Shown: positions 33,265 to 63,300 of the stretch, piece after piece
Position numbering within the stretch: the stretch's first letter is position 1
Layout: each line of letters starts with the position of its first letter
Assembly: GCA_044892505.1 (NCBI GenBank)
Contig: CM097882.1
Coordinates: 569,098,001 to 569,162,000 of the forward strand
Direction of reading: 5' to 3'
Length of the DNA stretch: 64,000 bases
Source: Schmidtea nova
Lineage: Eukaryota
Notes under the pieces: generated by a model
Database searches by the model: none
Told to the model about the DNA's origin: nothing
The model's input: the letters and a program-made list of their open reading frames with translations, nothing else
Program-made: the position numbers and the translations under genes

Positions 33265-33447
33265 ACATTATATTCACATTTTTATAAGCTAAACGATTTC
33301 AATAAATTAAATGGTGTTGATCCGTGTTTTGTTTGTTCTTAGTTAAATTTATTTCTATTTATTTAATCATATGATTTTTACACTCGACGGATAATATTAA
33401 TCTTGGTAACATGTTTGATGCATTATAAATTGGGTTTGTTATTTAGT

Positions 33448-34524: not shown

Positions 34525-34542
34525 TGGGGGCTCAGCCGGGAT
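34525..34542 (+). promoter_or_regulatory. Primer-binding site, tRNA-Pro type
   Basis: TGGGGGCTCAGCCGGGAT matches the canonical Pro PBS TGGGGGCTCGTCCGGGAT at 16/18 positions. Confidence 0.85.
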
Positions 34543-45800: not shown

Positions 45801-48800
45801 TTTCGAAAGATGCCCTTTGGATTAACAAACGCACCAGCATCATTTCAGAGATGCATGAATTTCGTCACCCATGGAATAAAGCAGTGTATGGTCTACATTG
45901 ACGATTTATTAATCTACTCTAGCACGTTTGAACAGCACATACAGGATATTCGAGATGTATTCGTTAGACTTAGACAATGGAAGTTAAAACTCAAGCCATC
46001 CAAGTGTGATTGGGCGAAAGAGAAAGTAACATTTTTAGGACATATAGTGTCAGCAAAAGGAAAAGAACCGGATCCTAGAAATATCGACAAAGTAAAGGAA
46101 TGTCCAGTACCAAAAACAATAACCCAGATACAAGAATTTCTTGGACTATGTGGATATTATAGAAAGTTTATAAAAGATTACGCCGGAATAGCAAAACCTA
46201 TACAGGAACTAGTAAAGAAAGATGTATCCTTCATATGGGGAGACGAACAACAAACAGCTTTCGAGACATTAAGAGATAAACTGATAACCGCACCCATATT
46301 GGTACACCCAGACTTCAAGAAGCCATTCTTACTTGCAACAGACGCAAGCGGATATGCAGCAGGAGCAGTATTAGGACAATACGACGATGAAGGAAAAGAA
46401 CGCGTAATCGGATATTATAGCCGGACATTCAAAAAGCATGAGAAAAATTACTCAGTAACCGAGCGAGAAGCGTTAGCAATCATACTAGCAATTAAACACT
46501 TTAAATATTTATTATGGGGACACATCATCTGTATAACCACAGATCACCAACCGCTTGTGTGGTTAGGACAACATAAGGAAACCTCCAGTAGATTAATGCG
46601 ATGGGCAATGCAGCTACAGGAGTACTCACCAGACATAAAATTTAAATCAGGACGAGCGAATGCGAATGCAGACTGTATGTCCAGACTGACATTTCCGGAA
46701 TTAACCGACCCGGATGTACAACGAATTTGTGTATTAATAGCAGAAGATTTAGATTTTAGTGAGTTAAAGAAAGATCAACAGGAAGACAGAGAGTTAGGAC
46801 AGATCATAGAGTTCCTAACATCTCGAAATATGGAGGTATTCAAAGATAATAAAGAATTAAAGGAACATATAGGAAAATATCAACATCGATATATAATAAA
46901 TAAAGGATGGTTATTGATACAAGACGGTGAAAAGAGGCTGATGTGTTTACCGGAAAACAGAAGGAAAGAGATAATGATCCAATACCACGATGGGAAATTA
47001 GGAGGTCATATGTCAGAGAAAAAGACAATAAATCGGATGAGACAGAAATATTATTGGCGAACAATGGAAGAAGATATAAAAGAATGGATTAAAAATTGCC
47101 TAACCTGCGCAACTAGAAAGGATAGTGGGAGGAAATGGAAGAACCCGCTGCAACCAATGCCGATACCAGCAGAGCCAATGACAACTATAGCAATGGACGT
47201 AATAGGACCATTACCAGAAAGCTTAAACGGAAACATTTACATACTAGTAATAACGGATTACCTGACGAAATTCCCGGAAGCATTCGCCATGCAAGATCAA
47301 AAAGCAAAAACCGTAGCAAAAATTCTAGTGGAAGAAATATGCTGCAGATATGGAACTCCAAAACAAATACTCACAGACCAAGGAACTAATTTTATGAGTG
47401 AGTTATTGAACGAGGTGACAAACTATTTCAGAATAGCGAAATTGAGAACTTCACCATATCATCCACAAACGAATGGTCAAACAGAGCGATTCAATGGCAC
47501 ATTGATTAGAATGTTATCAAACTATGTCAGCAGACACCAAACTGATTGGGACGAATACATAAAATTATGTTTAATGGCATACCGAATGTCGATACATGCC
47601 GCAACAAAACTAAGCCCGTTTCAACTTATGTATGGCAGAGAATGCAACATGCCCATAGATTTGGAGTACCAGCCACCATTATCGCAATATATGGAAGATG
47701 ACGACTACGTAACCAAATTCAAAGAAAGAATGCAGGAAATATGGAAAACGGCAGAACTTAACATTAAATTTTTTCAGGAAAGTTATAAGGACCTACACGA
47801 CCAGAAGAAAAATGTTAAAGCGAACGATCTAAAACCAGGAGATTGGGTGATAATAGAAACTCCCGAAATAATACCAGGAACGGTTAAGAAACTCCAAAGA
47901 CCTGGAAGAGGACCTTATGAAATTATATACAAAAAGGACAATAATGCCAAAGTTAAGCTAATAAACCGACCATTAATACGACCCATATATGTAAACACCT
48001 GCAGATGTAAGAAGGTGCCTAAAACGATAACTACAACACCAGAGAATCGAATAATAACCAGATCACAAACAGCCAGGATAAACATGCTCAGAGCAAACAC
48101 CAGCGAAGACGACAAAACAGAAATAAGGCAAAAAGAAATCAGAAATAAAGAAGTCCTATTGAAGGCGAGAGAGATAATGGGAAGATGGCATGTTAGAGAC
48201 GAAGCAGGCATATCAAGGGACATTAGACACATAATTAGCCGTTACGCACAAGGATTACCAACCGAACCAATTATTTCTGAATTATTGATAAAAATCCCTG
48301 AAATACTCTTATTAAAAGATGTAGGAGGACAACCAGCCTTACATAATGCGATTCAGTGTAAAAACATTGAAAGAGCAAAAGAATTCTTGAAAATCGCAAA
48401 AGAAACAAACCAAAACCTAGACGTTGGGAATCGTGAACAGGAAACTCCATTAATGACAGCAGCCATCTACCAAGCAGATAAAGAAATGGTAGATCTGTTG
48501 ATAAAAGCTCGTTTCAGTTGGACAGAACGAGATAGAGAAGATAAAACAGTGCTAAATCACGCGATATGGAGTTCTCACCAACTTATGTTGGAATATATAA
48601 TAGCAAACTCCACGTGGGAAATAGACGAATTAATAAAAGGAGACCTTATCAAAGAGGCAATCAAAATTGGCAAATGTAATACGATCCGTAAGTTAATCGA
48701 ATGGAAACGACCAGAAGAGGATACATGGGTCTTAGACATAAACGAAGTATACAGCGAAGGACAAAACGCACTGTTGAGATACCTTTTGAAATTTACTTGT

Positions 48801-51800
48801 GATCAGAAGACATTACTAACCTTATTAGACAGGGGAAACATAAACATCACAAAGAATGAAGAAGAACACAAATTCGATAAAGAGAAGGAGGTCTTATTCA
48901 ACAAAATTAGGAAATGGTGTGCGAAACCACTTGATAAACTAATAACATACAAAGACATAAATAATTTTAACGATAAATACCAGACGATAGTAAGTGAGTA
49001 CGAGGAATTAGTAAAAATCTTAAACCATCCCGAAAAATGCAAACAGGTTTTGGAGAGAAAAGAAAGAGAAAGTAACAAGAAACTCACACCACTCTTCAAA
49101 GCAGAAGCACCATACCAAGCGAGACTAGATGCGATACAAGAAAAAGCAAAAGAATTGTTACCGGAATTCGAGAATAGTAAACATGCACTAGAAATACTCG
49201 GCGCATTAGTTGAAAAAGTACACGCATACGCAAAAGGAACATACAATGGTAACGACATAGTAATAATAAAAAAGGAGATGCCAGTAACATTCCTATTACC
49301 AAAAGACGGAATAATGCCCATACATAGAGCTCTACGAAATGGCAAAGATAGGAAAGTAATGGAAATTGCAAGAGTAATGCTAAATTGCGGAAGCAATATG
49401 AATATGATAGACGAGAAAGGAGATACGCTTATGGTATTTGCAGCAAGGGCCAAAACGAAAACAAAGGTATTAGAAGAACTATACAAAGCAGGTGCAGGAC
49501 TTACAGGAAAGACAGATAAAGATAATTCGATATTGGATGTAGCATTATTAACACACAATTGGGAAATGGTCAATTTCATTAAAACCGTCCCAAATCAGGA
49601 AGAAATAGATCACCTAACTGATACGGTCAAGAAACCCAGTGTACTAGCAATGATGAACAACGTCGAACTAACAGAATCAATACTTACGTGGATAAATCCG
49701 AATACTAACGAACCAGCATTCAGGATTAATAAGTTTACAGAACATAACCAAAACTGGTGTATAAGAAGTGCCTTAATAACGTATAAATGGCCAGAGATAT
49801 TGAAGATGTTTATGGAAAGAAAGGATCTAAGAATCACAACCAGCCCGAAAGAAGAAAAATACACAGGCAAATGGAAAGAATTAATGAAGACATACATCAA
49901 CAATTGGATTAAGGCCAAAAAGGAAATCTTGGAACATAAATCCACTAACAAAGTAATACCGGAGCAGGTAGAAACACAAGAATTTGAGGCAAGTAATCTA
50001 ACGACATTAGCGTATGCGAAACTAATAGAAGAAATCAATGTCGAGGACGACATTTTCGACGAGCCAGGGGGAGATGACAACACAGATAGTGACGACGGTA
50101 ACAACTCAGAAAATTCAAGCGATCACGAACCACCCGATAAAGGGGAAAACGAGAGAAAAGACAAGAAACGAGACAAGGAAGGAAAGAAAGGTGAAGACGA
50201 AAAACAAAGAGATGAAGAGAGAAAACAAGGAACAAACGACCAAGGAGATAAAAATGACACCCAAAGAACAGGTTATAAATCAACCATAAAACCATTCTTC
50301 AAACCAGAATTACTATTATTAACAGTGATTTTAACGTTAATTAACCCAAGTCAAGGAATGACATGTGAAGAAAGGGCAATAATACAAATAAAAAACGCGA
50401 AAGGAATCGAACGAGTATGTTGGTCAAAAAAGGACAAAATCACGGAACAAAATAGTCCGATGGATTGCAGAATCTCAAAACACGAGCAAGAGATCATAGA
50501 GATCAATGACCTAGATCTAAATACCTGGTACAAAATATGCACCGTTAGAAAACAAAAGCATCCAAGATCACACAACACCATCGCATGTGCAAAATACCAA
50601 ACACCTAAAGCAGCCATGACAATACAACAGTCACCCAAAGGAGATTACATCATCGGAAAATGTGGAAGGACAGAGACACAGGGAACAGAAAACAAAAAAC
50701 CCCAGGCAACAGATAAGCAAACAACACCAACCCTACGAATTACAATAGAGAGGCCTGAAGCAAGAGTTGCCACAAACGAAACCGAAAGAGTGTCTTACCA
50801 AATGGAAGTATTATGTTTAGCACTCATACTAATAATGATAAAACGATTAGAGGAAGGAATAGAAATTGAAACTATGACAATAACAGAAGTAGAAGATACA
50901 CAGAGTACTAACATAAAATGTTGGGCGAGAAATAACGAGGAAATCGGCGTAAACGAAATAAGGAAAAGTCGAAAACCAACAACGAATAAAGTAATTAAAA
51001 TATCCGAAGTAAAAGCAGATAAGACGTACAAACTATGCCTACTAGAAAAAGAAACGAACAAGAAAGGTACCACAAAATGTAAAACATTTCAACCCGGAGA
51101 AGTAATAAAGTTCAGAAGGAGAACGAGGAAGAGAAATAAACAAATCAAGCGGAAAGTAAACATAACATTAGAAATAAAAGAGATAGAACCAAATGTGAAA
51201 GGAGTATGCTGGAGGAAGTACGAAAAAGAAGTAAATAAAAGAACGACACCACAATGTCGAACAAACACGGGAACAACGACAATTCAAATAAAAGGTTTAA
51301 AAAGTAAACAAACCTACGAAATATGTCTGGTAAAGGAAAATGATCAGATAACGATAAACGATCTAGAATGCGGAATATATACAACTTCATCCGGAACAAG
51401 AACCAAAACGTTAACACGGAAAAATAAAAGGAAACAACAAAACAAAGGAAAACCGAAGTACACCACTACCTTTAAAAACAATAAACAACCAACAAAACAA
51501 GAAGTTACGACGAAACCCGAGAGAAAAACATCAGCAACTCTAACATTATGGAAAATAGAGAATAAAACATTGAAAATATGTTGGATAATAGTACAGAAAC
51601 ATATAAGAAGACAATCAAGAGAGTGCAGAAAAACAAATAAAGAAATCAAGATCGAAAAACTACAATTTAATAGCGAGTACGAAGTATGCGCAATAGAAAA
51701 AATGGACGCACTAGGAAACCAACAAGAAAGATGCGAAACCTATTATACACCAGCAAACGCGACATCAAAAGGAGTAGCAAGGAAAATCGAATTCAAGGAA

Positions 51801-53759
51801 CTAAGCCAAACAAATGAACAAATGGACGCAGAAAAAACAATAATCGACCCTCAAGCAAAATGGACACCCGAAGAAGTTATCAAGGAAGTCAAAAGAAAGC
51901 AGGAGGAACGGGAACAATTAATAAGAAAACTAAAGGGACAATACGGAATAATGTTCAACCAAAGCGAATCTATACAAACAGACGAGAATAAAGAAATTAA
52001 AGAACTAATCGGCTTAGGAATATTAACAGCGACCATACCCGTAATAATCGCGTTATCAGCTATATGGATACGCAAGATAAACCCAAGGAAATCGGCAACC
52101 CAATGGCCAAATATAGACAGTACAAGCCATGGAGTTGAAATACTGGAAGAAAACGCACGAGAAGAACCAAAACCGACCAGGAATAAGAAAGAAGCAAAAA
52201 TCGCAAAACCAGGAATGAACAACAAAGACAAGGAAATAAAAGAGATTAAAGGAGAAGAGAAAAAATATGAAAGGCGAACCAGAAGCCTACCGCAGAGTTC
52301 AAAATGGTTGGGTCTAACAATAATATTGACATTAATCAATAGGGAAGAAGCAATAAACCCACAGACAGGGATAAAAATAATAAATGTCCAGGAAGTCGAG
52401 AAAATATGTTGGTATAGAGAAGATGAACCAATTGGAGAAAATAACCCACTAAAATGCATAATCCGAAAATCCGACCAGGATATAATACGAATAGAAGAAA
52501 TGGACAGAGGAATCATGCATCGGATATGCATAATAGGAAAGGAAAAGAAGTCGGGGCTACCTAAGACAGTCGTATGCCAAAAATATGAAACGCCTGGACT
52601 CGAATGGTATAGAGTAAAACCAACAAAGAAAGAAATCAAAAACACCATAGATCGACCAGCAACTCAGATAAGAAACACAACGGATAAACCAGGAGAAGGA
52701 GAGAAAAGCACCAATAAAACGAAAGAAAGAATATCACCCCAACAGGAGTGCGTATGCATAGCATTAATACTAGCAATGTCCAAACGTATCGATAAAGGAA
52801 TAATAATAGAACAAATGGCCATAACAATAAGGAAAACAAGTAGCAACAAACTATGCTGGGGAACATACAACGAACCAAGGAAGGAATACCAAGTTCAGAC
52901 AAGCGACGAATCACAAACAAACAAGGAAATCGAAATTCAAGAAATACAAATGAATGAAGAAGGAAGTATATGTATCTGGGAGAGAGGAATCCAAGAGGGA
53001 ATAGAGCATTGCAAGACATTCCAAAAAGGAGAGATACTGAAATTCGAGGAAGAAGAATTAACAAAGACAGAAAGAACTCTGACATTAACAGGACTCGATC
53101 AGACAGTTAAAGGAATATGTTGGACAAAGCATAACCCAGAAGGGGAAGAAGACAACCTAACCCACTGTAAAGAAACAGGGAATAAAGAAAAAGTCGAATT
53201 AAAGAAAATGGAAGTAAATAAGACATACGCGATATGTACTTTCACTAGAAAAGGTTCAGAAAAACCAGAATGCGGATTATATCAGATCTCAGAGAAACTA
53301 CAACAACAGATCGAACCAGGAAACGTAGAAAACCGAACAAAAGAAAATAACGTCAAACAACTACTAAATCGCCATTGGTCTACACAAGAAGTAATGAACA
53401 AAGTCAAGAATCAAGTACAGAAGGAGAAGAAGCCAGAGGCTCAAACCCAAAATGAGATAAAAGCGAATCAGAATAAAATCAAAGCAACAAACCGTGGAAA
53501 AACAGTAATAGGATTAATTAGTATAGGAATATTAATAGCATATGGGATAATGACGACAAGCATGATAATATATTGGAGATACAGAAAGAGAAACAAAGCG
53601 ACAGCCATACAATGGCCAGATATTAAAATTATGAAGCAAAGAATAGAAATACCAGAAGAGATACAACAAGAATTCCAAAGAAGAACGAAAGGTAAAGAAT
53701 TCTGGAAACAAATAGAAGATGAAGAACGATACGAGGAAAAGACGATAATGATGGTATAG
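36849..53759 (+). CDS. gag-pol: Giant polyprotein (5636 codons; first ATG 37281): Gag with 3 CCHC, UBL-like x4, AT-hook, Bcl-2-like, glycoprotein, PR, RT, RH, IN, ankyrins, FN3-like/TM modules
   Basis: CCHC 37992-38144; DTG 44679; YIDD 45894; TDASG 46338; IN HHCC/DDE ~46984-47500; GPY ~47910; 16.9 kb without a stop. Confidence 0.97.
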   Translation: MRKGAKSVAIKPTKKQKAGKDNHKNPQGSKARKIIRDKSIIENDKLSVVSNSSSNKENQAEPKENQTSEIESDETNNDNIEELENEVEPEVETNESDNESIISDNIIIRETESDSSSSETEDEHNNELETRRNESKITQDSGIEMSEPREEIKDKFPGEPFNGDASKLEIFLKEFGIFVEVCKWKAETTASRIQLYLKDSALDLYLEAKNGTNPPTSWTAIKDFFQQTFGINKVLSEAFIEFSMRKQKMNESNAVYASELKKLAKSVFKDGGPINEELMAAIFIGGLRRPDIRAQVGCQGCKTIDQALETANRFELHMIGSEGRIYLAMDTAQTEPEVNLNNHIPNSQQLNRPPPQRRNEGNKAQNFESQNNYNPPRQTKQCKTCGKLGHWQQECYQNLNCGKCGVKGHSESRCSTIICFNCGRPGHYSRNCGQKSNQRGNWQSNGNRPNYGNQANTVNRPDYGNQQNNNNNNQNKTTPKEIHLMQEVQRLTELINNTTRGNPQTNQQQISMMRKIESENERLNRESQARHAQEWARIQREDEQKQQERERQPLRINMLRATNQTDTREKEITLEMNSIDPNPADNESRKEIVQKDEEVEKEAEKGVETEINQEERKEIWKKGMMVIMPNDHMFRFQYNAKEEVKVLFNKVNQMIPGVTKLPREAFLQIEGAPSVKLKLTDIWENMGVVETKRNVMRIKEIEPEEIPPPIRHETRIRRIFEGKMIRRRLKEIDELGKKMEKVEVIEDKSEPTLEIDKNEPEPTENIQGETNQIAHINMLRNTTREFSDEEEDSDISSLAGDILNESEDENKEREVIKTSEPTQIKVDEIQKLLDNSLEVIYNEEFMDKKQYRKFMKALLQMNYKEWLQDREVDMLNRYVGKLIEEPLLNYTISIIINTSTPRIWIKTPFTDDIYRWVEDRLGSSYKNKFIYSQNRLVKKRTHLVETGIWPGEITLLSICDEKEEENLQEVAREANTCFERRIKPRLEYEKERVLRKNLNSLIEQIIPQVKKHRKELMRSEYEKLKQCIECIRDTSHTRWSQISHDKLIAKMGKTIFRQGKITDLKISVELPNEDTKEIEVVADCTIKELINIINETLVQREPEDEWEDDIIIQYNEHVLWDHDERRLYKIGIWDNHQTIHVIRMDDTPRETAKDEKRERERRKEVVRKLQQIVDIYRNWRIWPEWENVLGELNLNRRRRTPVEKQWNEKGKCWVPKEGEYEEEYERGMEDDCESEMRRVCMVTRKATPIDLDGPETAAIWVEKEKQKTEEFVEILKTNAHGKRKIIKGLADFFVVNGEDITCLRKVAKAIAEYKRVNEWCPEQLDHVIRKWRNQEFSQEIPQKVHLRIIYPNKDKEELWVGIAEKIRDIKKKLRYEPPFHLQHQGRSLDNSLEIGITPVQLDLMNTLTVEAIAGQPLKRKEENHKPHGSISTPSPMELVPTTGTSSRRSETTPRGNREMTPPQPYDVDEILTDSDDMIEELTELTKEKDDNIFERIQELPTTVQVTNTGETEVEEEIIIEEVNDLTEDETRGANVENVRLTQEMERWLEERANEPRDVTEETGRATRFVETGTGMDRRPRGRPKTDPANVVIRNKDEKRQDQWEVCLKKLNKIAEIKEKETTPICQGEEWISKTIMEILAIIDPELKKYWRITEISEKAKSLHSAIAPILPEFIKEKTKSNHLDWQGTTTLIKKLTEGAETDNKYVIAIAYTIYNLLTLSRGRPKPTALERHIKNTAKIITREIEPYIINKGGWETFIKTNQKKTQAKNMKKKFEKILEELEKEQTGTGNAKSSMNLSSIIMMMLIWMISTDSATAFEVFDCDQMKLGEKYSLRGTEQCKDATPVELQKIKKEQWYHVYQEAELIKTMVNECKVQKTRFAFYCGRGHYSAIVMPGTEREPIVLQGEDCEALFKHGEVTTRDKIKIKGKPGMMMQQTYYVAGRITGGEGYCQGETYPMFGTLATNLVVMDTYIVELKSYEAFFEPTTGEMKTLSMCKIDRSMCQTGMSTLVYKPKVNECQLQLLQGAKFDEIQGKTFQEEDDDDKDRAKHLKEALENKRQLKPDHREKRIEMRATPTVLITTNQDVGMRFIKGKATLKCSTTVYETNYPGIYVSKQEVPNAKPKIDTMDIKLHLYVNNKMDFLFHRGQASLQKVYYDLINNDCILNREILKTKLAVAITNPDSAMPLLPLREGHFGRVVGEAMYVYICEKTHASLAATTQLKPGTCTNELEIDYKGKVRYVQPVTRIINPPGFEPNPFNCSNAYGPLYQKPDGKWVMFPGRSEVIAPREFELMQLSKDRQFSDVDVSNNGIYSPKDLEAARQNILFPARREALLSNIVTITGGTDYREGPNYELLLSPAHFKKATENMMKAMWGRFLIFGQMMAGILGVILIIQIVRVIITQMLACFDIYKREKKVNWKMVVGFLPFLAKTMVLHGHSKDIHRIKRLLKILAKMKGTDEEVGRKFKKIMNDEQARQQLKRERKGLWERVKGYKTQNDSSDDDDDDDDYKGGQVYKNQAPQYIEKNPADAWKCYAPPPTMYQEPLQGGKNSTMQMMPMTNVYPMIPEDYKMRRCRSVDPQGDTHTIAVMSSNTGPVLTTTIEINGREIEAMIDTGANISAIDIKWIPQEQRRDIERTNVHVIACSKEVVEVAGRWWVKIRHLNTEIDTYVAVIPALSVPCIIGTDLMPALFKEIVIDLGTMRLKDRTGQICAIEAKVTSSKQMIIPARKEKICYVKIDPTIQGDMIFEPSKRFEKRKALPMARGLVNINNNGEIPINVVNFDEEDKIIYENERLGKLTPMMDIELPIAGAEKDKEPTWNIDSELLNEDQRKQLEKLLMEYKDIFAASDLDLGTCDVTLHTIPLTDETPIALRPYKLAEAQKAVAEAEVKKMLDAEVIEPSCSPWQFPVVMVKKKDGTQRFCIDYRRLNTVTKRDTYPLPDINEMLLTLQGAAYFTSLDLKSGYWQIKMKEEDKEKTAFTIGRDLYQFRKMPFGLTNAPASFQRCMNFVTHGIKQCMVYIDDLLIYSSTFEQHIQDIRDVFVRLRQWKLKLKPSKCDWAKEKVTFLGHIVSAKGKEPDPRNIDKVKECPVPKTITQIQEFLGLCGYYRKFIKDYAGIAKPIQELVKKDVSFIWGDEQQTAFETLRDKLITAPILVHPDFKKPFLLATDASGYAAGAVLGQYDDEGKERVIGYYSRTFKKHEKNYSVTEREALAIILAIKHFKYLLWGHIICITTDHQPLVWLGQHKETSSRLMRWAMQLQEYSPDIKFKSGRANANADCMSRLTFPELTDPDVQRICVLIAEDLDFSELKKDQQEDRELGQIIEFLTSRNMEVFKDNKELKEHIGKYQHRYIINKGWLLIQDGEKRLMCLPENRRKEIMIQYHDGKLGGHMSEKKTINRMRQKYYWRTMEEDIKEWIKNCLTCATRKDSGRKWKNPLQPMPIPAEPMTTIAMDVIGPLPESLNGNIYILVITDYLTKFPEAFAMQDQKAKTVAKILVEEICCRYGTPKQILTDQGTNFMSELLNEVTNYFRIAKLRTSPYHPQTNGQTERFNGTLIRMLSNYVSRHQTDWDEYIKLCLMAYRMSIHAATKLSPFQLMYGRECNMPIDLEYQPPLSQYMEDDDYVTKFKERMQEIWKTAELNIKFFQESYKDLHDQKKNVKANDLKPGDWVIIETPEIIPGTVKKLQRPGRGPYEIIYKKDNNAKVKLINRPLIRPIYVNTCRCKKVPKTITTTPENRIITRSQTARINMLRANTSEDDKTEIRQKEIRNKEVLLKAREIMGRWHVRDEAGISRDIRHIISRYAQGLPTEPIISELLIKIPEILLLKDVGGQPALHNAIQCKNIERAKEFLKIAKETNQNLDVGNREQETPLMTAAIYQADKEMVDLLIKARFSWTERDREDKTVLNHAIWSSHQLMLEYIIANSTWEIDELIKGDLIKEAIKIGKCNTIRKLIEWKRPEEDTWVLDINEVYSEGQNALLRYLLKFTCDQKTLLTLLDRGNINITKNEEEHKFDKEKEVLFNKIRKWCAKPLDKLITYKDINNFNDKYQTIVSEYEELVKILNHPEKCKQVLERKERESNKKLTPLFKAEAPYQARLDAIQEKAKELLPEFENSKHALEILGALVEKVHAYAKGTYNGNDIVIIKKEMPVTFLLPKDGIMPIHRALRNGKDRKVMEIARVMLNCGSNMNMIDEKGDTLMVFAARAKTKTKVLEELYKAGAGLTGKTDKDNSILDVALLTHNWEMVNFIKTVPNQEEIDHLTDTVKKPSVLAMMNNVELTESILTWINPNTNEPAFRINKFTEHNQNWCIRSALITYKWPEILKMFMERKDLRITTSPKEEKYTGKWKELMKTYINNWIKAKKEILEHKSTNKVIPEQVETQEFEASNLTTLAYAKLIEEINVEDDIFDEPGGDDNTDSDDGNNSENSSDHEPPDKGENERKDKKRDKEGKKGEDEKQRDEERKQGTNDQGDKNDTQRTGYKSTIKPFFKPELLLLTVILTLINPSQGMTCEERAIIQIKNAKGIERVCWSKKDKITEQNSPMDCRISKHEQEIIEINDLDLNTWYKICTVRKQKHPRSHNTIACAKYQTPKAAMTIQQSPKGDYIIGKCGRTETQGTENKKPQATDKQTTPTLRITIERPEARVATNETERVSYQMEVLCLALILIMIKRLEEGIEIETMTITEVEDTQSTNIKCWARNNEEIGVNEIRKSRKPTTNKVIKISEVKADKTYKLCLLEKETNKKGTTKCKTFQPGEVIKFRRRTRKRNKQIKRKVNITLEIKEIEPNVKGVCWRKYEKEVNKRTTPQCRTNTGTTTIQIKGLKSKQTYEICLVKENDQITINDLECGIYTTSSGTRTKTLTRKNKRKQQNKGKPKYTTTFKNNKQPTKQEVTTKPERKTSATLTLWKIENKTLKICWIIVQKHIRRQSRECRKTNKEIKIEKLQFNSEYEVCAIEKMDALGNQQERCETYYTPANATSKGVARKIEFKELSQTNEQMDAEKTIIDPQAKWTPEEVIKEVKRKQEEREQLIRKLKGQYGIMFNQSESIQTDENKEIKELIGLGILTATIPVIIALSAIWIRKINPRKSATQWPNIDSTSHGVEILEENAREEPKPTRNKKEAKIAKPGMNNKDKEIKEIKGEEKKYERRTRSLPQSSKWLGLTIILTLINREEAINPQTGIKIINVQEVEKICWYREDEPIGENNPLKCIIRKSDQDIIRIEEMDRGIMHRICIIGKEKKSGLPKTVVCQKYETPGLEWYRVKPTKKEIKNTIDRPATQIRNTTDKPGEGEKSTNKTKERISPQQECVCIALILAMSKRIDKGIIIEQMAITIRKTSSNKLCWGTYNEPRKEYQVQTSDESQTNKEIEIQEIQMNEEGSICIWERGIQEGIEHCKTFQKGEILKFEEEELTKTERTLTLTGLDQTVKGICWTKHNPEGEEDNLTHCKETGNKEKVELKKMEVNKTYAICTFTRKGSEKPECGLYQISEKLQQQIEPGNVENRTKENNVKQLLNRHWSTQEVMNKVKNQVQKEKKPEAQTQNEIKANQNKIKATNRGKTVIGLISIGILIAYGIMTTSMIIYWRYRKRNKATAIQWPDIKIMKQRIEIPEEIQQEFQRRTKGKEFWKQIEDEERYEEKTIMMV

Positions 53760-53884
53760 GGGCGGATTATGACTGTAAATAATAGTGTAAATAACAAAGC
53801 ATTACCGTAATAGTATGGGTATCGATATTATAAAAGTTGTAAAAAGATAGAAAAGCAAAGTAAATGATGTATATAATTTAGAAA

Positions 53885-54241
53885 ATGACCGAACAAGACG
53901 AAACCACTGAAATAACTATGGCTATGAGATGGAAAGCACAATGCGATTTATTAGTACGAACAGTCAACTCATTACAGAACCAATTAGCGGAAAAACAAAT
54001 GTTACTATCTGAAAGTTATAACAACTGTTTCGAACAATTACACAGAATAGAAGAACAACAAAGAGTGATAACCGAACTCACCAGAGAAAATCAAAATATA
54101 AGCAATATCAATCAAAGACAAGCAATAGAAATAAACCATTTAACACGAGGAGAAAGAGAAGGATCCGAAGAAGGATGGATGAGTTGGGTAATAAATAGAC
54201 TACACAACGAAGCGGAACCAGATTCAACGAACGAGCCATAG
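53885..54241 (+). CDS. Accessory coiled-coil protein, 118 aa
   Basis: ATG in TTTAGAAAATG context; heptad-rich Q/E/N sequence; element-like codon bias. Confidence 0.75.
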   Translation: MTEQDETTEITMAMRWKAQCDLLVRTVNSLQNQLAEKQMLLSESYNNCFEQLHRIEEQQRVITELTRENQNISNINQRQAIEINHLTRGEREGSEEGWMSWVINRLHNEAEPDSTNEP

Positions 54242-54334
54242 ATAAATAAAGCGGAAAATTGTAAATATGTAAAAATAAAAACAAGAAAAACCAAAAAATA
54301 AATGACAAGTCGAATGTATATATTATTGTAGAAA

Positions 54335-55711
54335 ATGGACAGAGAAGAACGAATAATCGAAATTTTGAGATTAGAAAACAGAAAATGGAGCAAGAGGCTC
54401 ACATGCGGAAAATGTAACAATTTATTACGAGAACCCAGACAAACGATATGTGGATGTAGAATATGTACAAAATGTATACAAGAATTAGATGCAACAGGAA
54501 TAACAACATGCCCAGAATGTAAGGAAGGAAGAATAGTGTTGGACGAAACCAGAACGGACAAAGCAACCCAAAGAGAAATTATGAGCACCACAACGGAGTG
54601 CGTAAATACACCTTGTACATGGCAAGGACAAATAAGTAATCTAGAAAATCATATGGAAAAGTGCGAGGAGAAAAGAGCCGAATGCGAGAAGTGCCAACAA
54701 ACAATAATTCTAAAGAAGAGAGAACAACACAAGGACGAATGTAAAGAAGAAGAAATCGCATGCGAGTATTGTGAAACTCGAGAAACAAGGGGAAAAATCG
54801 AAGAAGAACATTTGAATATAGCAGAGGAGAAAGTATGCGGACAATATGTAAGTAAATGTCCAAACAATTGCGAAATAACAGAAGAAATAAAGTTACATGA
54901 ACATTGGAAAGTATGTACCGAAAGGCCAAGAGAATGCCCATATAACAAGCATGGATGCAAGGAAAAGCGGACGCGACAAACAATGAACAAACACCTAGAA
55001 GAAGCAGCACTAACGCATGTGGAAATGACAAACGAAACGACAAAAGAAACGGAACAGACAATCCAGAAATTAGAAAAAGAAGTAGAATCACATAAGATAA
55101 TGATGAGTTTACTACTAGAAACAAGAGAGCAGTTTGAACTAACTCGCGAAAGAATGGAAAAGAAAATAATAGCCATAGAAGAATTAGGAAAAGGAATGAA
55201 AATACAATATAATCAATTAATACGAGAAATTGACGAAAGAAGGGACTTACCAATCGCACCTTACCTATGGAAAGTAACAGATTTCAGAGACAAACTAGCA
55301 GAAGCCAGAAATATGACGAAAACAGCAGTAATAAGCCCACCATTTTATTTATGGAAAAACGGGGTGAAAATAAGATTGAAAGTATACCCAAATGGAGACG
55401 GAAGAGGACAAGGAACACACGTGTCAATATTTTTCTCGCTATGTAAAGGAGAATACGATGACCTAATAGAATGGCCCTTGAAAGTAGGAGTCATTATAAG
55501 AATCAAAAGTCTGGGAAAACCAGTAGAAAAATTCTTTGAAACAGACAAACATACGAGTACAAGTGAAAAACCAACAACGGAATGCGGACTAGCAGCAGGA
55601 GAACCAATGTTTATAAGGACAGAAAACCTATGGGAGCGACTATATGCAGACACGCTATACATAGAGATGGAGAGGCATGAGAAAACAGACAGAAAAGGAT
55701 GGTTGGCGTAA
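54335..55711 (+). CDS. TRAF: Full-length intronless TRAF-like protein (RING, TRAF zinc fingers, coiled coil, MATH)
   Basis: RING CGKC...EPRQTICGCRICTKC...CPEC; Zn fingers H..KC...C..C; MATH YLWKVTDF...SPPFY...KVYPNGDGRGQGTHVSIFF...GEYDDLIEWP. Confidence 0.95.
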   Translation: MDREERIIEILRLENRKWSKRLTCGKCNNLLREPRQTICGCRICTKCIQELDATGITTCPECKEGRIVLDETRTDKATQREIMSTTTECVNTPCTWQGQISNLENHMEKCEEKRAECEKCQQTIILKKREQHKDECKEEEIACEYCETRETRGKIEEEHLNIAEEKVCGQYVSKCPNNCEITEEIKLHEHWKVCTERPRECPYNKHGCKEKRTRQTMNKHLEEAALTHVEMTNETTKETEQTIQKLEKEVESHKIMMSLLLETREQFELTRERMEKKIIAIEELGKGMKIQYNQLIREIDERRDLPIAPYLWKVTDFRDKLAEARNMTKTAVISPPFYLWKNGVKIRLKVYPNGDGRGQGTHVSIFFSLCKGEYDDLIEWPLKVGVIIRIKSLGKPVEKFFETDKHTSTSEKPTTECGLAAGEPMFIRTENLWERLYADTLYIEMERHEKTDRKGWLA

Positions 55712-55823
55712 TGAAGGAAGTAACCATGTAAATAAAATGTATAGAAACAATATGAATTAACAAATAATCAAAAACAATAAAATAAAAAATGATTAAATAT
55801 TCTTTTTATCTGTAATTATAGAA

Positions 55824-56885
55824 ATGGGAAATATAGAAGTAACCTTACAAGAAGTAACCGTACATCAAGACGAAATGATCAGAAATCACATGGAGCGGAT
55901 TGGGATATGGATTCACGCCTATTATCGTAAACAGGAAGAATTGGAAAGACAAACCGAAGTACTAAGAGAAGCTGAAGAAAGGAATCAAAGAAGTAGAGAA
56001 AAAATAGAGGAAGTCTATAAATTACTGAGGCAACAAAACGAATACTACAAAGGAATGATGAAAGAGCGACGAGAGGATAGAGATAGACAACAGATAAAAA
56101 CAGACCACAAGATCCAGTCAATCACCGAACAAGCAAGATATTGGAAGAAAGAGGCAAAAGACTCTTACAAGGAAGCAAGGGAGATAATTGAACGAACAGC
56201 GTATAGCGATGATTGGAAACTGTTTAAAGAGATCGATGAATTAAAAGAGGAATTAGGGCAAAAGATCAGTCAAGAAGCGTCAAATAAGGTATGGAGTAAG
56301 AAAAGACAACAATTCATCAGAGAACAAGCCAAGAAAATTAAAGAACTAACTTATCAAGTGCAAAGAATGGGAGATGATTTAGCCAATCAAGAACAGTTAA
56401 AAGGTATGCTGACCGGAATGTGGAATCACAAGGAGGAAAACATGAAAAGAGATATAAATGGATATCAAGGAGTGATTACCCAGAAGAAAATAGAATTAAA
56501 AAGGACTAAAGAAAGAATGGAAGAAACAAAACAGAGTTATGAAGAAAACATAACCAACTTGACAAAAGAAAACGAAGATCTGAGAAAGAAACTAACAGAA
56601 AAACCAGTACCCACAAAGGAAACAAGTATCACAGCAGCAGTGACCGAAATGATAGAGAAAGAAGAGAGAGAGAAAAAATTAGCAGAACTAGAAAAACAAA
56701 TAGAAACCCTAACAGAGCAGGCGAACTATCTGGAATACTTATTAGATGAAGAGATCCAGATATCCCACACGTACCGAGAGGAAGTGGAAATGTGGAGGAG
56801 TACGGTAATATGGATGCCACTCCCCATAAACCAGGTGGAACCTCAAGACGAAGGTTTTCACGAACCTAACGAAACCCTCGTGTAA
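55824..56885 (+). CDS. Long coiled-coil protein, 353 aa
   Basis: E/K/Q-rich heptads along most of its length; TATAGAAATG start context. Confidence 0.85.
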   Translation: MGNIEVTLQEVTVHQDEMIRNHMERIGIWIHAYYRKQEELERQTEVLREAEERNQRSREKIEEVYKLLRQQNEYYKGMMKERREDRDRQQIKTDHKIQSITEQARYWKKEAKDSYKEAREIIERTAYSDDWKLFKEIDELKEELGQKISQEASNKVWSKKRQQFIREQAKKIKELTYQVQRMGDDLANQEQLKGMLTGMWNHKEENMKRDINGYQGVITQKKIELKRTKERMEETKQSYEENITNLTKENEDLRKKLTEKPVPTKETSITAAVTEMIEKEEREKKLAELEKQIETLTEQANYLEYLLDEEIQISHTYREEVEMWRSTVIWMPLPINQVEPQDEGFHEPNETLV

Positions 56886-56964
56886 ATGAGCGGAAACCAA
56901 TTGTAAATAGATGATGTAAAATAAAAAGCGTCAAGCTGTATTGACTCCTATGTAAAGATAGAAA

Positions 56965-57525
56965 ATGAGAAAGCTCGCAATACCAATACTCCTAGGGTTA
57001 ATAACCATCACCCTACAGAGAGAAGATCTACAACTTAGTGAAACCCAATTACGAGTTCTACCCGACAAAACCTACCAAAAAGTAGACAGCCTAATCGAAG
57101 AAGTAATTAAAGAAATCAACGAATTCCGACAGAAATATCCCCACAATCAAGATCATCAAATCCAACAAATCTTAGATAACCAACAACTGAAGCTAAAAGA
57201 AACCCAAAAAACCCTGAAAGAAGGTAGAGAGCCCATAAAAAGCCTAGCCCAAGCTGAAATAGAATATCAAGAGAAATGGATCATAGCAATCATCATAATC
57301 CTCTCAATCAGCGTAACTATCATCGCAATCACAATCCTGATTGCCTCCTACCGGATAAAAATCCTCAAACAGAAACAAACCATCGTCAATCAAACATCAA
57401 GGCGAGACAAACGAACCCAAAGACGTATGAGAAAACATCTAGATCAAATTCAGACCCACTACGAATTAGCTACAATCAATGAGAGAACTCAAACCCAACC
57501 CAATGCGAGCCGGAGGATCGAATAG
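56965..57525 (+). CDS. Predicted type I membrane protein, 186 aa
   Basis: Signal-like MRKLAIPILLGLITITL; helical ectodomain; TM WIIAIIIILSISVTIIAITILIASY; basic tail. Confidence 0.8.
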   Translation: MRKLAIPILLGLITITLQREDLQLSETQLRVLPDKTYQKVDSLIEEVIKEINEFRQKYPHNQDHQIQQILDNQQLKLKETQKTLKEGREPIKSLAQAEIEYQEKWIIAIIIILSISVTIIAITILIASYRIKILKQKQTIVNQTSRRDKRTQRRMRKHLDQIQTHYELATINERTQTQPNASRRIE

Positions 57526-59025
57526 ACTTTGTGAACATCTCTGATGAACCTTTAACTATCCTGTGACAATAATCTGATAATATTCAACTAGCCTATAACC
57601 AATCTCATGATGTGTATAAATTCTATCACCTTAAGTGATTTTCTTGTGTTTATGTATATATCTGTAAAACTTTTTATGTATGATGTTATAAGTAGTTATG
57701 TATAATTAATTGCGGGACGCAATTTTAGGGGTCCCCGAGTGATGTTGGGCCCACCAATTGGTCTAAAAAGGCAAAAATATTGTACTAATTTAAACAATAA
57801 ATACAAATAATAACCACAAAAACATTCAAAAAAACCTAAATTAAAAATTAAAATAAAATAATAAATAATAATTACTAAATTTCCAGCAAAGGAAGAAAAT
57901 CAAATTGACACAAGAACGAGCAGTATGGGGGTCTGAAATAAGAAAATTACCAATAAAATCAAATAAAAGTACAATTAATTGGTTAATTACTTGAAAAAAT
58001 CGAGACCACCCAGCGAGAAATCTGAACCGGAAATTTAAAATGGTTTATATTAAAATAAAATAACAAAATTACTTTGATGGACGGCCTGATCCTGATTGGT
58101 CAATCTGACCAACTGGATCAGTATAAATACCGATCCAAAAATCATACAGATAACATCTAAATACTTAGCTACCGAACTGATTTATCATAGTCAACTTTGA
58201 TACGATAAATACTGTGAAAATTTTTGGAAAACACTGCATCGTGGATTGAAACAGTAAATTTTCTTTTGTATTGTATTTTGCATAAATTTTTATGATATGT
58301 TTCATGATTCCCATTTGTTTTATTTAATATAATTTATTACTATTACTCTATTTTTCTTATGCCATTATTTTATGATATAATAAATATACTTCCTCAGTAG
58401 CTTACGCTGCGAGGGAGCAAGCCGTAAATGTGGGATTTCACCGTTCCACAAGATGGTGAGCAGAGTTTCTATTGGTATTCTTTATTTAATTTAATTTTAT
58501 CGGAAATTTCACGGTACGGTAAAGTTGTGCAGGGACAAGGACACGAGTGAAATTTGTAGACAGTGGTTAACATTTACATTCGATCAGACAGGCGAAAACA
58601 AACTATAACATAAATTATCAGGTCGACTAGATCGATTTTTTCATATACACGCAAATTTTTATAAATCAACATAGCTGATCGAAATAATGTCCGGACACAC
58701 CGAGACGATTTCGACGTTTCAACTACAGTTTAATTTAGACATAAACAACGACATATTCGGATCGACCCTACTGATTAAATAAGTAAAATCGTAACCTGAT
58801 CGCTGTACATAGCGCAGGTAATAATAGGTAAATTTTTAATATTCCGATCGCTGTACATAGCGACGGTGTTAATTGAATAGTTTGGAAAATATTTTTTTTT
58901 TTTCATTCTCCCTTTTCACATTTTTTTTTGTGTTATTGATCAACGAGCAGAGCACTTTTTATCAGGTCTCACAAAAATTTACGGATTTATCACAGTAAAT
59001 TCTATTAGCATTATTATTTTCGCAG

Positions 59026-59526
59026 ATGAAATCAACGATACTGGATGAATTTCTAACAGCTCAACGTCATGTGGCACGGGTCGAGAATCCTCTAATCCGG
59101 ACGCAACGGAAGAAATTGAAGTCGCTTCCACAGGAACTCCTCAGAACGCTAAATGCGTTGATGTATAAATGGAGAAGGGAACTAGGAAAGAAATGCCCAT
59201 TTTCGATTTGGGCCGGTGGATTGGATACCATCGTATATCGAGGAGGCCCCGGATGGGAAATTCAGGACGAAAGAGACCGGGAGACGACAGCTCTGTTCGT
59301 CATAGTGGTGTCAGACAGTGAAGGAAATCCAACGACAGTGATCCATTGGGGATATGTCTCACCCCTCAAGTTGCTTCAATTCGGGTTGATTCCGAATCAC
59401 CTACCAAAAACATGCCATGAGCGTCCCAAACTCAACTGTTCAATGGCTCACCTCCGACGAGATCCAGTAAATCGCGGGTTGCATATTACTCCCGTACACG
59501 GCCTCAAGCGAAGTGTTTTCCACTAA
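59026..59526 (+). CDS. LTR-encoded ORF A, 3' copy
   Basis: Same translation as 32764-33264. Confidence 0.7.
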   Translation: MKSTILDEFLTAQRHVARVENPLIRTQRKKLKSLPQELLRTLNALMYKWRRELGKKCPFSIWAGGLDTIVYRGGPGWEIQDERDRETTALFVIVVSDSEGNPTTVIHWGYVSPLKLLQFGLIPNHLPKTCHERPKLNCSMAHLRRDPVNRGLHITPVHGLKRSVFH

Positions 59527-59709
59527 ACATTATATTCACATTTTTATAAGCTAAACGATTTCAATAAATTAAATGGTGTTGATCCGTGTTTTGTTTGTTC
59601 TTAGTTAAATTTATTTCTATTTATTTAATCATATGATTTTTACACTCGACGGATAATATTAATCTTGGTAACATGTTTGATGCATTATAAATTGGGTTTG
59701 TTATTTAGC

Positions 59710-60300
59710 ATGACGGAAACTAGCCAACAGCGAGAATTGGACAAGGCGTGGAGAATCCGCCGAGCATTGGAAAAGGAGCTAAACCAGGAAAAAGCCTTAC
59801 GAGCCAAAGCAGAAGCTCAGATTCAGCATTTACGGACCAGCTGGTTCGCACCAGCTCGCATGAAGGAGCAGATGAGTCGGACAGAAAGGGCTCAAAAGAC
59901 AGCTGACGATTATCGGACCGAATGGGAAGCAACAAAAATTGAGTTGCGCCGATGTCTCCATTCGGTGACGACTTCATTTATCGAGTCCGAATTGAAAGCA
60001 CAAATCCGACCCATTACTTACCAGAAATGGGTAGGAGAACAGAGAGTGGCCTGCTCAGTCAGTACAGACACCGATGGACTCGAGGCAACCACAGTGCAGA
60101 ATCGGGTGGAAACCACCACTGTACCAAACCCCGTCGGAAAAACGAATAAGCGGAAACGAATCGGCTCCAAGCGCCGTCGCCAAAGAAAGCTGTTTTCACA
60201 ACAATTGCAGACACAAGTAACCACTATGGCAGAAATGTCGGAGGCCGAGTGGTTATCAGAGATATTCCCTCCAGAAGGAATTTTCAAAGAATTTCTATAA
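59710..60300 (+). CDS. LTR-encoded ORF B, 3' copy
   Basis: Same translation as 33448-34038. Confidence 0.72.
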   Translation: MTETSQQRELDKAWRIRRALEKELNQEKALRAKAEAQIQHLRTSWFAPARMKEQMSRTERAQKTADDYRTEWEATKIELRRCLHSVTTSFIESELKAQIRPITYQKWVGEQRVACSVSTDTDGLEATTVQNRVETTTVPNPVGKTNKRKRIGSKRRRQRKLFSQQLQTQVTTMAEMSEAEWLSEIFPPEGIFKEFL

Positions 60301-63300
60301 CAGATAGAATACGATGTCCGATTTGGGAGTCAATTAAATTTTTGCTCGTGTTTGTTTTGTTGTTGTTATTTCTTTTGTATTTCCTTCGATTAAATAATTC
60401 ATATAATTAAAATTCAATTACCCGTCACACAACGAAAGAAGTAGCGATAAAAAGAACTTAAATACTATCAAATTCGTAGTTTGGTTTTGCCTGTTTGTTT
60501 TGTTTTTGATAAATATATAGCCTCACACACACAAAATAGAACAATAATTGCGTAAGTCCTTCTACGGCCGCGTGAACCCGTAAGCATAAAGGGGGAGTAG
60601 TCCTAGCAATAGTGCTCACCTGCCCCTCATTGCTTAACCACCCTGCGCATCACCAACTTGGTTATCAAGGGAAATAATCAAGGGCGCTCGAGTGTAGATT
60701 ACGACTATTTATGCATGATCATGGATGGGAGATCCCTAGCAATCATTAAAATTTTTACCAAACCGTCCATGAACCCAGNNNNNNNNNNNNNNNNNNNNNN
60801 NNNNNNNNNNNNNNNNNNNNNNNNNNNNNNNNNNNNNNNNNNNNNNNNNNNNNNNNNNNNNNNNNNNNNNNNNNNNNNNNNNNNNNNNNNNNNNNNNNNN
60901 NNNNNNNNNNNNNNNNNNNNNNNNNNNNNNNNNNNNNNTCTAAAAATTATAAACTGATTTGAAATAATTGGTGATAATTAGGAATATTATTAAATAATTT
61001 TAAGATAATTAAGGATAATTGAATTCATTAAATTCCGTTACAAAACCAATTATAAAAAGTATTTAAGGATATAATTAAACAAAATATGATACAGCGCATA
61101 CTGAAAATATTCTGTACAGTTATTGAAATAGGCTGAAATAAATAGAATACAAGTTGTATTAATTTGATTGACAACAGAAACCTTAGGTGAATAATCTGCT
61201 TTGCTATAGTTTGTATAAATGAATGTTTGACATTTTCGATAAATCTTTTGAAATTTGTATTAAGTTCAAAGAAATGTGAGTTAATATTTTTGAAATTTTA
61301 GTAATTTGATATTTATTCATATTTCATTACAAAATTTTAGAGAAATAATTTACATCGGTTCTTGGGTAAAAAGGATTTTGTTGGTATATGGGCTGTTAAA
61401 AATTGTTTTGCAAGGAATTACAGCAACCCCTTGATACCGTCATGAAAATGTTTAATCTCTTTCACTTGTGTACCCATAGTTACTTCTTAGTAAACTATGT
61501 TGGTATTGTACACCGTGTTGCGATAATTCAATGAGCAGGTGAGATTCATTGCAAAATTCACTGCTAATTGTATGATCTCTTTCGGCTTCCTGCTGCCGAA
61601 AGAGGGTCTTACGCTCATAATTAATTTAAAGGTCATATTAATTAATCAACTCTTAACTCTAAAACATCGCCTTATAATATTTAACATTCACTCCTATCTG
61701 TTTGAAAAAAAGATATCCCAAATAAAACATTTCTATTCCCCCCTGTTTCACCTTTCAAGTACATCTCCCAATTCCTTCTTACCCTAGCGAAACTATATAA
61801 TTCAATAAGAAATGGTCAGAAGAAAAATCAAGAACCTCCAACCGATCGGGAGCTTATAACCTGTGAGTCAACAGAGCTCCTCTAAATCAGTTTAATTAGG
61901 AAATCATTTGAGAGAGCATATTTAACAAGCAAACTTATAGTTAAAATATTTATTAACCATTTTAAATTACAGCTCAGTAAAAATAAAACATAATTGAAAA
62001 TTACAAGGAAAATATCAAACGTGCGTTAATTCATTCGTTCCACTGAATAAATTCAATTGATACTGGTGCTGGATGGTAGATTTAAAATTTTAAAATGTCT
62101 TCTCAGTAAAAAGTAAAAATTAAAAGCTTTTCTTATGATTTTTCAGCGTCTGTTTATACTAATATTGTGTGACACCCACGCGTTCTGTTCACTAATTAAG
62201 AATATTTATAATTTAATTTATATATTTATTTTAATATTTGAATTATCAATTTTTATAAATGAATTATTTATTTATTTTTCAGTAAAATTAGTTTTACAAT
62301 TTTAATTTATTTTCTAAATATTTATTTTAAATTTCACTAACTTATATGTAAAAAATATAGCATTATCCTGTTTGCGATAATTGATTAAATAAACAAATTT
62401 TCCTATTTTAGTCCCTATTTCTGTAATTTTATCGATATTTTAATGGGCATTTCTTCTATAATCTTTAATAAATCATTCTCTTTTTTTTTATACTAATTTT
62501 ATCTTTGATCATGCCTTTGTATATAATATACGAGCAAAGATCTTTCCCATTCAATTTTCGTGTCTTCGTATGTAAATTTGACCTGCACTCAAATTGTGTC
62601 CTCTCTTTTTAGATGCCTCTTTTTATCGCTTTATCCCTACCTCGACTGACTTATGAAATGCGGTTCGTTTGCCTGCTATTTGTGATTTAATATTCGATAT
62701 TCTTCTTTTCTATTTTTACTGTATGTGTTATCGTGTTTTTTGAATTCATATATTTTTGTGAATTTTCAATTGTAAAAATATTTTGTTTAATGAATTTTCT
62801 TAAAAAGGAATTGCAAAGAAAGAGATATAGGAAAAGCCCTTGGAATTCTTTTCATAAAAGTATCAAAAAAGTATCAAAAATATGAAAACATGAGATTTGA
62901 TCACAATTTTAAATATAATTTCTGTATTATATATGACAAAAGAATTTGTAATTTTTATGAGGTACGGTGATGTTTAAAATTATTTTGCAATTAATTTTAT
63001 ATAAATTCTTTTTTAACAATAAAAAAAAACCAAAGCACAATTTCCATGGAATTGAGATTTCTCAACATGAATAACTTTGGATTTTTCTTGTAATTTTCCA
63101 ACATTAGGAATAATGAATTAAATAAATCTAAAAGGCACTTCATGTATTTTGACATAATATTTTGACATATTTTTGACATATTTTTGAAATAAAAAATTAT
63201 TAAAAACTACATGCAACAAAATTCCAAGAAAGACTATCGAATTTAATATTATAATCAAAACAGTATCAAATTTATAAGACAATTTTTTTTCTCGATTTTT

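Follow-up and report, generated by a model that had tools for sequence, protein, structure and literature searches.

The giant long terminal repeat (LTR) retroelements of dugesiid planarians known as Burro or GYPSM1 are about 30 kb in length and present in high copy number. They carry a first open reading frame (ORF1) of about 5,000 amino acids in which an envelope-like fusion protein lies between gag and the protease, together with ankyrin repeats, MATH/TRAF domains, accessory ORFs and tandem leader repeats (PMC6431247). Their layout is described in section 7 of that review, in connection with Grohme 2018, a section that is silent on how the accessory ORFs are expressed. Elsewhere, the accessory genes orf a and orf b of walleye dermal sarcoma virus (WDSV) are expressed from spliced subgenomic RNAs (PMC3185748), and in the flatworm and nematode operons resolved by spliced leader (SL) trans-splicing, same-strand ORFs lie about 100 nt apart with a YAG near the ATG (PMC12582326, PMC8629364). 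Here we describe an element of Schmidtea nova contained in a 64-kb stretch of contig CM097882.1 (hereafter the window). By its layout and domains it classes as a giant gypsy LTR element of the Burro type. Four further ORFs (A1 to A4), placed downstream of ORF1 and ahead of the 3' LTR, accordingly class as its 3' accessory genes. Elements of this class, and the accessory ORFs that they carry, are already known; what appears to be new is a conserved cis-regulatory cassette in the spacer before each of the four, with an acceptor-like AG close to the ATG and a UGUAHAUA motif close behind the preceding stop codon.

Spacers were compared in 44 copies of the element falling into four families, in which 167 of 176 spacers were delimited and nine were not delimitable by script; a rearranged copy (L031), the short pattern loci L021–L029 and the TRAFs without a cluster (L054–L058) were excluded from these counts. 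Close copies of the window region are numerous (36 scored of 984 candidates, at 93–100% identity), and a search with the MATH domain gave 150 scored of 2,437 candidates, all at 95–100% identity. Family 2, with 88 pattern matches, has proteins 66–77% identical to those of the window family, the corresponding values being 50–70% for family 3 and 34–54% for family 4, and the order A1 to A4 is retained in all four. An AG lies no more than 8 nt before the ATG in every one of the 167 spacers, as part of a YAG in 153 of them and of an AAG in the other 14, all of which are copies of spacer 4. A first-pass annotation, made from the letters of the window alone, had described each accessory ORF as starting at TAGAAA(A)TG. 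On re-check the four start contexts and the spacer lengths (Table 1) were exact for the window copy, and the predicted exon starts (53882, 54332, 55822 and 56962) were correct relative to the AGs, but the literal TAGAA(A)ATG proved to be family-specific, occurring in only 89/167 spacers. The gap between AG and ATG ranges from 1 to 7 nt, its letters changing between families, and CAG takes the place of TAG before A4 in families 2 and 4 and, in family 4, before A3 as well, the triplet before A4 overall being TAG, CAG or AAG. At the A2 start the TAG was intact in all 100 matches listed of 131, among which the sole changes were two at the N position of UUNYAG, the acceptor motif reported for flatworms (PMC12582326); A2 and A3 fit this motif, A1 fits it partly and A4 does not. 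A branch-like T[AG]A[CT] of the TNAY type lies 13–35 nt upstream of the AG in 152/167 spacers, and in spacers 1 and 4 changes at its free positions. Over the four families, 76 of 112 columns are invariant in spacer 1 and 51 of 86 in spacer 2, as against 23 of 60 four-fold sites in the ORFs.

The conserved feature before each ATG is therefore, as judged from these alignments, an acceptor-like AG and not the literal TAGAA(A)ATG. The YAG rule, taken with the free distance between AG and ATG and the variable letters within it, suggests that the AG evolves as a splice acceptor would, unlike a stop codon or a start motif. That TAGAAAATG is a fixed start signal was rejected, as the letters between AG and ATG vary across families, and a stop-restart role for the TAG was rejected on account of the CAG and AAG found in some families and the free frame to the ATG. 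The first-pass proposal that the spacer AGs serve as splice acceptors is thus supported by conservation, through the YAG rule, the free AG–ATG distance and the branch-like TNAY, and we regard their use as acceptors, by a cis or a trans route, as very probable.

In the window copy itself, the pattern of start contexts and 8-mers in the spacers exceeds chance. The motif TGTAAATA, confirmed at the five positions first reported for it (Table 1), occurs five times in 409 nt of spacer and nowhere in ORF1, A1–A4, the 3' LTR or the reverse strand of the element. Dinucleotide shuffles of the spacers gave a mean of 0.20 and in no case out of 20,000 reached five; as a correction for looking elsewhere, 131 of 5,000 sets of four shuffled spacers had some 8-mer present in every spacer. 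A TAG 0–3 nt before the ATG in all four spacers arose in 0/20,000 shuffles, and among the 514 ATGs of the internal region a YAG followed by 0–3 nt precedes 63 and TAGAA(A) precedes six, four of which are the starts of A1–A4. Each spacer contains four additional ATGs, and spacers 2 and 4 have a GCG(G/A)AAA box upstream of the UGUA element. The core of spacer 1 (53800–53835; GCAT(T/A)ACCGTA...TATGGGTAT) is near-invariant in the four families and was seen also in further families among the contigs compared; the spacer 1 motif had no match in metagenomes. An Rfam scan of 31400–61000 gave no match, and no consensus fold was found for spacers 2 and 3. Two candidate hairpins were rejected, that of spacer 1 having five pairs without compensatory change and that of spacer 4 being unsupported.

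The other half of the cassette, UGUAHAUA, lies 14–21 nt after the stop codon in 156/167 spacers, on the sense strand and outside coding sequence, with a second UGUA 0–5 nt behind it and a third close to the AG. Since this distance from the stop is narrow whereas that from the site to the AG is wide (51–108 nt), the motif appears to be anchored to the stop codon; four positions drawn uniformly were as tightly placed after the stop in 347 of 1,000,000 draws. It follows only those stops that have another cistron behind them: a first UGUAHAUA 15–22 nt after the stop was present at 15 of the 16 family-by-ORF junctions after ORF1, A1, A2 and A3, and at 0/16 after the two LTR ORFs (a and b), the RING-finger ORF of the leader and A4. 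The motif shares with the Pumilio response element UGUANAUA the exact 8-mer, the restriction to the sense strand and to non-coding sequence, the free fifth position and the frequent pairing (PMC5855632), and differs in its place 14–21 nt behind inter-cistron stops, with a further UGUA beside the acceptor. Spacer 2 of family 3 has TGTATATA, which departs from the other families where UGUANAUA leaves the letter free and so is permitted by the PUF consensus (PMC5855632). The earlier identification as a Pumilio element is strengthened to the extent that the 8-mer varies across families as a PUF element would, binding by a PUF protein being a prediction. Control in stem or germ cells, which the first-pass annotation put forward as possible, is conjectural. 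In the one paper on Burro expression that was consulted, BURRO1 is reported as intestine-enriched when derepressed (PMC8532177).

A further part of the first-pass annotation, that the spacers couple polyadenylation to splicing as in nematode operons with UGUA aiding 3' processing, was not supported. The AATAAA hexamers noted in spacers 2–4 of the window copy are indeed present, and AATAAA occurs in 92/167 spacers overall. It is, however, not enriched (7 observed vs 4.56 expected; 3,076 of 20,000 shuffles reach 7), does not occur in any of the 44 copies of spacer 1 and is found in spacer 4 in family 1 only, three of the four families lacking it there. A search for five poly(A) hexamers within 75 nt of the stop found none after ORF1 in any family, and none after A2 in family 2 or after A3 in families 3 and 4. 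The spacers are A-rich without a U-rich stretch: T content in the 90 nt after internal stops is 21–32%, compared with 38–51% after the LTR ORFs, the tails of which are U/GU-rich and contain GU-rich runs. U-rich poly(A) sites are found in Schmidtea mediterranea, which is reported to have neither upstream UGUA enrichment at these sites nor CFIm59/68, and planarian poly(A) signals are degenerate, tolerating one or two changes (PMC5068929). Because AATAAA is neither more frequent than chance predicts nor conserved, and UGUA is reported to be missing from planarian sites, we consider polyadenylation within the spacers doubtful, although weak sites may exist.

Upstream, the LTR of copies of all four families contains a TATA box, which in 8/8 copies is followed after 108–184 nt (about 130 nt in the window copy) by a donor-like GT(A/T)(A/T)T, and we infer that this GT is a splice donor. 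The two LTR ORFs and the RING ORF begin 0–7 nt behind a YAG in most copies examined, and a further acceptor-like AG opens a gag leader of 526 nt with 0 ATG where 6.9 are expected, 23 ATGs lying farther upstream. Our working hypothesis, which we judge about as likely to be true as false, is that A1–A4 are each translated from their own spliced subgenomic mRNA, in which a short LTR exon is cis-spliced to the AG before the ATG. A single LTR promoter would drive a long pre-mRNA, the donor-like GT of which would be joined to one of eight acceptors (those of the two LTR ORFs, the RING ORF, the gag leader and A1–A4), so that the ATG of each ORF would become the first in its message and the four spacer ATGs would be removed. 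The mRNAs of ORF1 and A1–A3 would remain uncut in the spacers, the next spacer forming the start of a long 3' untranslated region (UTR) in a set of 3'-coterminal mRNAs. The twin UGUA element would then be bound by a PUF protein, most likely Pumilio, with CFIm25 (a gene of this family was found in the genome) as the alternative, and would set the stability or translation of these messages; this last step is the least secure. Such an arrangement would resemble that of complex retroviruses such as WDSV, in which accessory ORFs behind the structural genes are expressed from spliced RNAs of one LTR promoter (PMC3185748). The differences lie in the gypsy-type reverse transcriptase and invertebrate host, the eight predicted acceptors including that of gag, the non-overlapping ORFs with a repeated spacer cassette and a predicted donor upstream of the primer-binding site.

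A number of observations weigh against this hypothesis or parts of it. The introns implied are 22–25 kb long, and splicing would have to pass over T-rich LTR acceptors that are stronger. Donor-like motifs abound in this DNA (7–13 candidates per kb), the T-rich step behind the donor-like GT of families 1–3 is weak in family 4, and in family 2 three copies lack a YAG immediately upstream of LTR ORF a (two others have one). The A4 acceptor is poor, with AAG in 14/37 copies and four to seven T in the preceding 17 nt, while the branch-like motif, common in AT-rich DNA, is absent from 15/167 spacers. Apart from the motifs, spacers 3 and 4 are no more conserved than four-fold sites (32/83 and 19/60 columns over the whole spacers). 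In families 1, 3 and 4, AATAAA keeps a fixed place (spacer 2, +32/33; spacer 3, +19/20); spacer 4 of family 4 has no perfect UGUAHAUA (0/6), and the stop-proximal pair is missing from the 57-nt spacer 1 of one family 3 copy (L040). Copies and families are, moreover, related, so that the counts are not independent, and spacers 2 and 4 may share an origin. Searches for spliced retrocopies gave 0 matches for the A2 start with foreign upstream letters (131 for the control) and 0 for exon 1 without its G (24 for the control), negatives that are uninformative because spliced RNAs would lack the primer-binding site. Four runs of one study, whose contigs look like DNA, were compared with 53000–60770 and 53740–54460 and have no bearing on splicing: none of 15 joints listed of 36 ends at a predicted acceptor, 53740–54460 gave no joint, and the loose contig ends shown belong to diverged families.

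The acceptor evidence would serve equally well for a true operon, in which A1–A4 receive the host spliced leader by trans-splicing at the same AGs, whether or not the spacer is also cleaved, and in which the twin UGUA element would couple the two steps. Planarians are reported to trans-splice, and the spacers (73–133 nt in all but one of 167) match the flatworm intercistronic distance of about 100 nt (PMC8629364, PMC12582326); no introns of 22–25 kb would be needed, and a CFIm25-family gene is present in the genome. An upstream cis donor is, however, reported to disfavour trans-splicing (PMC8629364), and a donor-like GT is found near the promoter. Nor is there a sign of selection on the frame of a leader-borne AUG, which would be in frame in 69/167 spacers, and every ORF retains its own ATG. 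Compared with known SL operons, the spacers lack a conserved poly(A) signal (AATAAA 0/44 in spacer 1) and a U-rich element, a donor-like site lies upstream, and the cluster belongs to a retroelement, the genome RNA of which must remain uncut. It is interesting to speculate that a provirus-like retroelement has organized its accessory genes into an operon of the host type, its repeated cassette handing ORFs to SL trans-splicing and its stop-anchored twin UGUA tying together the processing or translation of successive cistrons, and our literature searches, within the texts they reached, found no retroelement with an SL-trans-spliced accessory operon. We regard this as possible but rather improbable, cis-splicing being slightly favoured over trans-splicing because of the donor-like GT after the LTR TATA box and the provirus context. 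The earlier proposal that the cluster is resolved into monocistronic mRNAs by cis- or SL trans-splicing therefore stands as to the conserved acceptor-like AGs, with a tilt to the cis route, and is not supported as to poly(A) coupling in the spacers.

Three further explanations seem less probable. Were A1–A4 alternative last exons, cis-spliced and each ended by weak polyadenylation in the spacer behind it, with UGUAHAUA in a short 3' UTR, the fixed AATAAA of spacers 2 and 3 in families 1, 3 and 4 and the poly(A)-like signals behind the LTR ORF and RING stops would find a place, as would the tolerance of planarian signals for one or two changes (PMC5068929); the chance-level AATAAA, the junctions lacking any listed hexamer and the low T content make this unlikely. 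A polycistronic RNA translated by reinitiation or internal entry, with TAG as an upstream stop and the A-rich linker recruiting ribosomes or poly(A)-binding protein, would suit a UGUA motif fixed to the stop codon, the unstructured spacers and the small in-frame ORFs that in the window copy end at the TAG before A1 and A2. Yet TAG is CAG or AAG in several families, the frame to the ATG is free and four other ATGs stand in each spacer, so that we give this little credence. Finally, each spacer might hold an internal promoter, with GTAAATA as a forkhead site and TGTATATA as a TATA-like box. The forkhead core is RYAAAYA, which GTAAATA fits, and the GCG(G/A)AAA box precedes GTAAATA in spacers 2 and 4. 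All sites are, however, on the sense strand, GTATATA in spacer 2 of family 3 breaks the core, the TATA-like box is only 10–20 nt before the ATG and the YAG rule is left unexplained; this explanation seems the least probable of all.

The element as a whole is about 29.3 kb long (Table 1). Its LTRs, of about 3.0 kb, lie 26,264 nt apart, start with TGTTGGG, end with CCCAGCA and are 99.87% identical over 3,023 readable nt. ORF1 (16,479 nt) encodes CCHC knuckles (residue 274), a mononegavirus-type fusion protein (1926–2266), protease (2453), reverse transcriptase (2765) and RNase H (2986), followed by integrase, and also has ankyrin repeats. The resulting order gag–env–protease–reverse transcriptase–RNase H–integrase is that expected for Burro elements, as are the length of about 30 kb with long LTRs, the single ORF of about 5,000 aa and the presence of ankyrin, MATH/TRAF and accessory ORFs. 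A difference is that TRAF is here a separate ORF downstream of ORF1, the reviewed cases having it inside ORF1 or in an upstream accessory ORF (PMC6431247).

Table 1. Coordinates of features of the Schmidtea nova element in the 64-kb window
Feature	Position	Strand	Remarks
5' LTR, readable part	31494..34518	+	End set by 5'/3' LTR comparison in other copies
LTR TATA box, predicted promoter	31858..31865	+	AGTATAAATAC; LTR start lies about 380-400 nt upstream; seen in copies of each of the four families
Donor-like GT	31990..31991	+	Inferred; would close a predicted non-coding first exon
LTR ORF a, 166 aa	32764..33264	+	Begins directly behind TTTTCGCAG; U/GU-rich tail with AATAAA
LTR ORF b	33448..34038	+	Begins 1 nt behind TTATTTAG; U/GU-rich tail with ATTAAA
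Primer-binding site	34525..34542	+	Complementary to tRNA-Pro(TGG); invariant in six copies; complement present in host tRNA-Pro genes
RING-finger accessory ORF	34894..35355	+	Begins 3 nt behind TTATTCAG; AATAAA at stop; Pfam zf-C3HC4_3, E 2.7e-12
Acceptor-like AG before gag	36753..36754	+	TTTGTATTTTAG; opens 526-nt ATG-free leader; present in families 1-2; family 4 has AAG at the aligned position
ORF1, 5,492 aa (gag-env-pol)	37281..53759	+	Domains as given in the text
Spacer 1, 125 nt	53760..53884	+	TGTAAATA at 53774 and 53786; core 53800-53835; A-rich linker; TGTATATA at 53868; AG 53880-53881
A1, 118 aa	53885..54241	+	No Pfam family; likely coiled coil; intact in 20/20 near copies
Spacer 2, 93 nt	54242..54334	+	GCGGAAAA box; TGTAAATA at 54260; second TGTA; A-rich linker; TGTATATA at 54315; AG 54330-54331
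A2, 458 aa, TRAF-like	54335..55711	+	RING-like Cys cluster, zf-TRAF, MATH; intact in 16/20 near copies
Spacer 3, 112 nt	55712..55823	+	TGTAAATA at 55727; second TGTA; A-rich linker; T-rich tract; AG 55820-55821 (TAG; CAG in family 4)
A3, 353 aa	55824..56885	+	Likely long coiled coil; sub-threshold Filament match only; intact in 20/20 near copies
Spacer 4, 79 nt	56886..56964	+	GCGGAAA box; TGTAAATA at 56902; branch-like TTGAC 56941-56945; weak acceptor AG 56960-56961
A4, 186 aa	56965..57525	+	Hydrophobic N-terminus, second hydrophobic stretch then basic residues; intact in 19/20 near copies
3' tail, T-rich	57526..57742	+	Polypurine-tract-like end 57726-57739; without stop-proximal UGUAHAUA
3' LTR, readable part	57743..60778	+	Begins TGTTGGG

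Other features of the element were noted in passing. LTR ORFs a and b (32764–34038, and 59026–60300 in the 3' LTR) belong to no known family and are present in all four families at 25–58% identity; an acceptor-like and a poly(A)-like signal accompany each of them. Between the RING ORF and gag, the leader contains tandem 29-nt repeats (35798–36240) that vary in number among copies. Ahead of the gag ATG, the frame of ORF1 continues open through 155 codons without an ATG (36816–37280; 121–194 in other copies), a stretch 67% identical in family 2 that possibly represents a non-AUG extension or a constraint on the leader. Towards its C-terminus (51400–52100 and 53000–53756), ORF1 has internally repeated Cys-containing units with hydrophobic stretches, for which there is no Pfam match. 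In the 3' tail, a hairpin TCAC-CTTAA-GTGA (about 57625–57640), preceded by a conserved GTATA(A/G)A, shows the paired change CCAC...GTGG in family 4 and is possibly a 3'-end or replication signal. Copy L040 is a deleted derivative in which the RING ORF is followed by a short protease-like segment that comes from elsewhere, and this by the end of ORF1 and the short spacer 1, which retains the acceptor half only. The genes for the primer tRNA, tRNA-Pro(TGG), form a tandem array with a 308-nt period at G000:C1:459.61–459.66 Mb (L074), with 1,106 pattern matches in the genome. Elsewhere in the window, overlapping ORFs with a DUF7041 match (17526–20006) lie between 67-nt direct repeats at 17510 and 20233 and are probably part of another mobile element.

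As to the accessory proteins, A2 matches MATH_2 (E 1.9e-20) and zf-TRAF (E 1.9e-07) in Pfam, and its closest database relatives are TRAF2-like host proteins only, at 24–35% identity. No database relative of similar length (194–618 aa) was found for A3. A4 is predicted, by eye, to be a membrane protein; no family was found for it, its atlas matches all being below 0.8. Viral contigs gave no relatives. The element-borne TRAF ORFs number in the hundreds, with the 150 scored of 2,437 candidates in the one search and more than 100 in a second family, and most have open frames.

Few known LTR elements match Burro elements in size, and the expression of their accessory genes is undescribed in the texts consulted; papers retrieved for Burro with retroelement or splicing terms (including PMC8532177, PMC11410931 and PMC13238120) contain, in the parts available, no description of the signals reported here. 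A PUF-type site fixed behind internal stop codons is an unusual design, and the cassette yields base-exact predictions, namely four acceptors in the cluster, eight in the element and one donor. That intact TRAF copies carried by the element number in the hundreds is relevant, too, to the expansion of TRAF/MATH genes reported from transcriptomes of S. mediterranea (PMC6109357), which may in part be Burro cargo.

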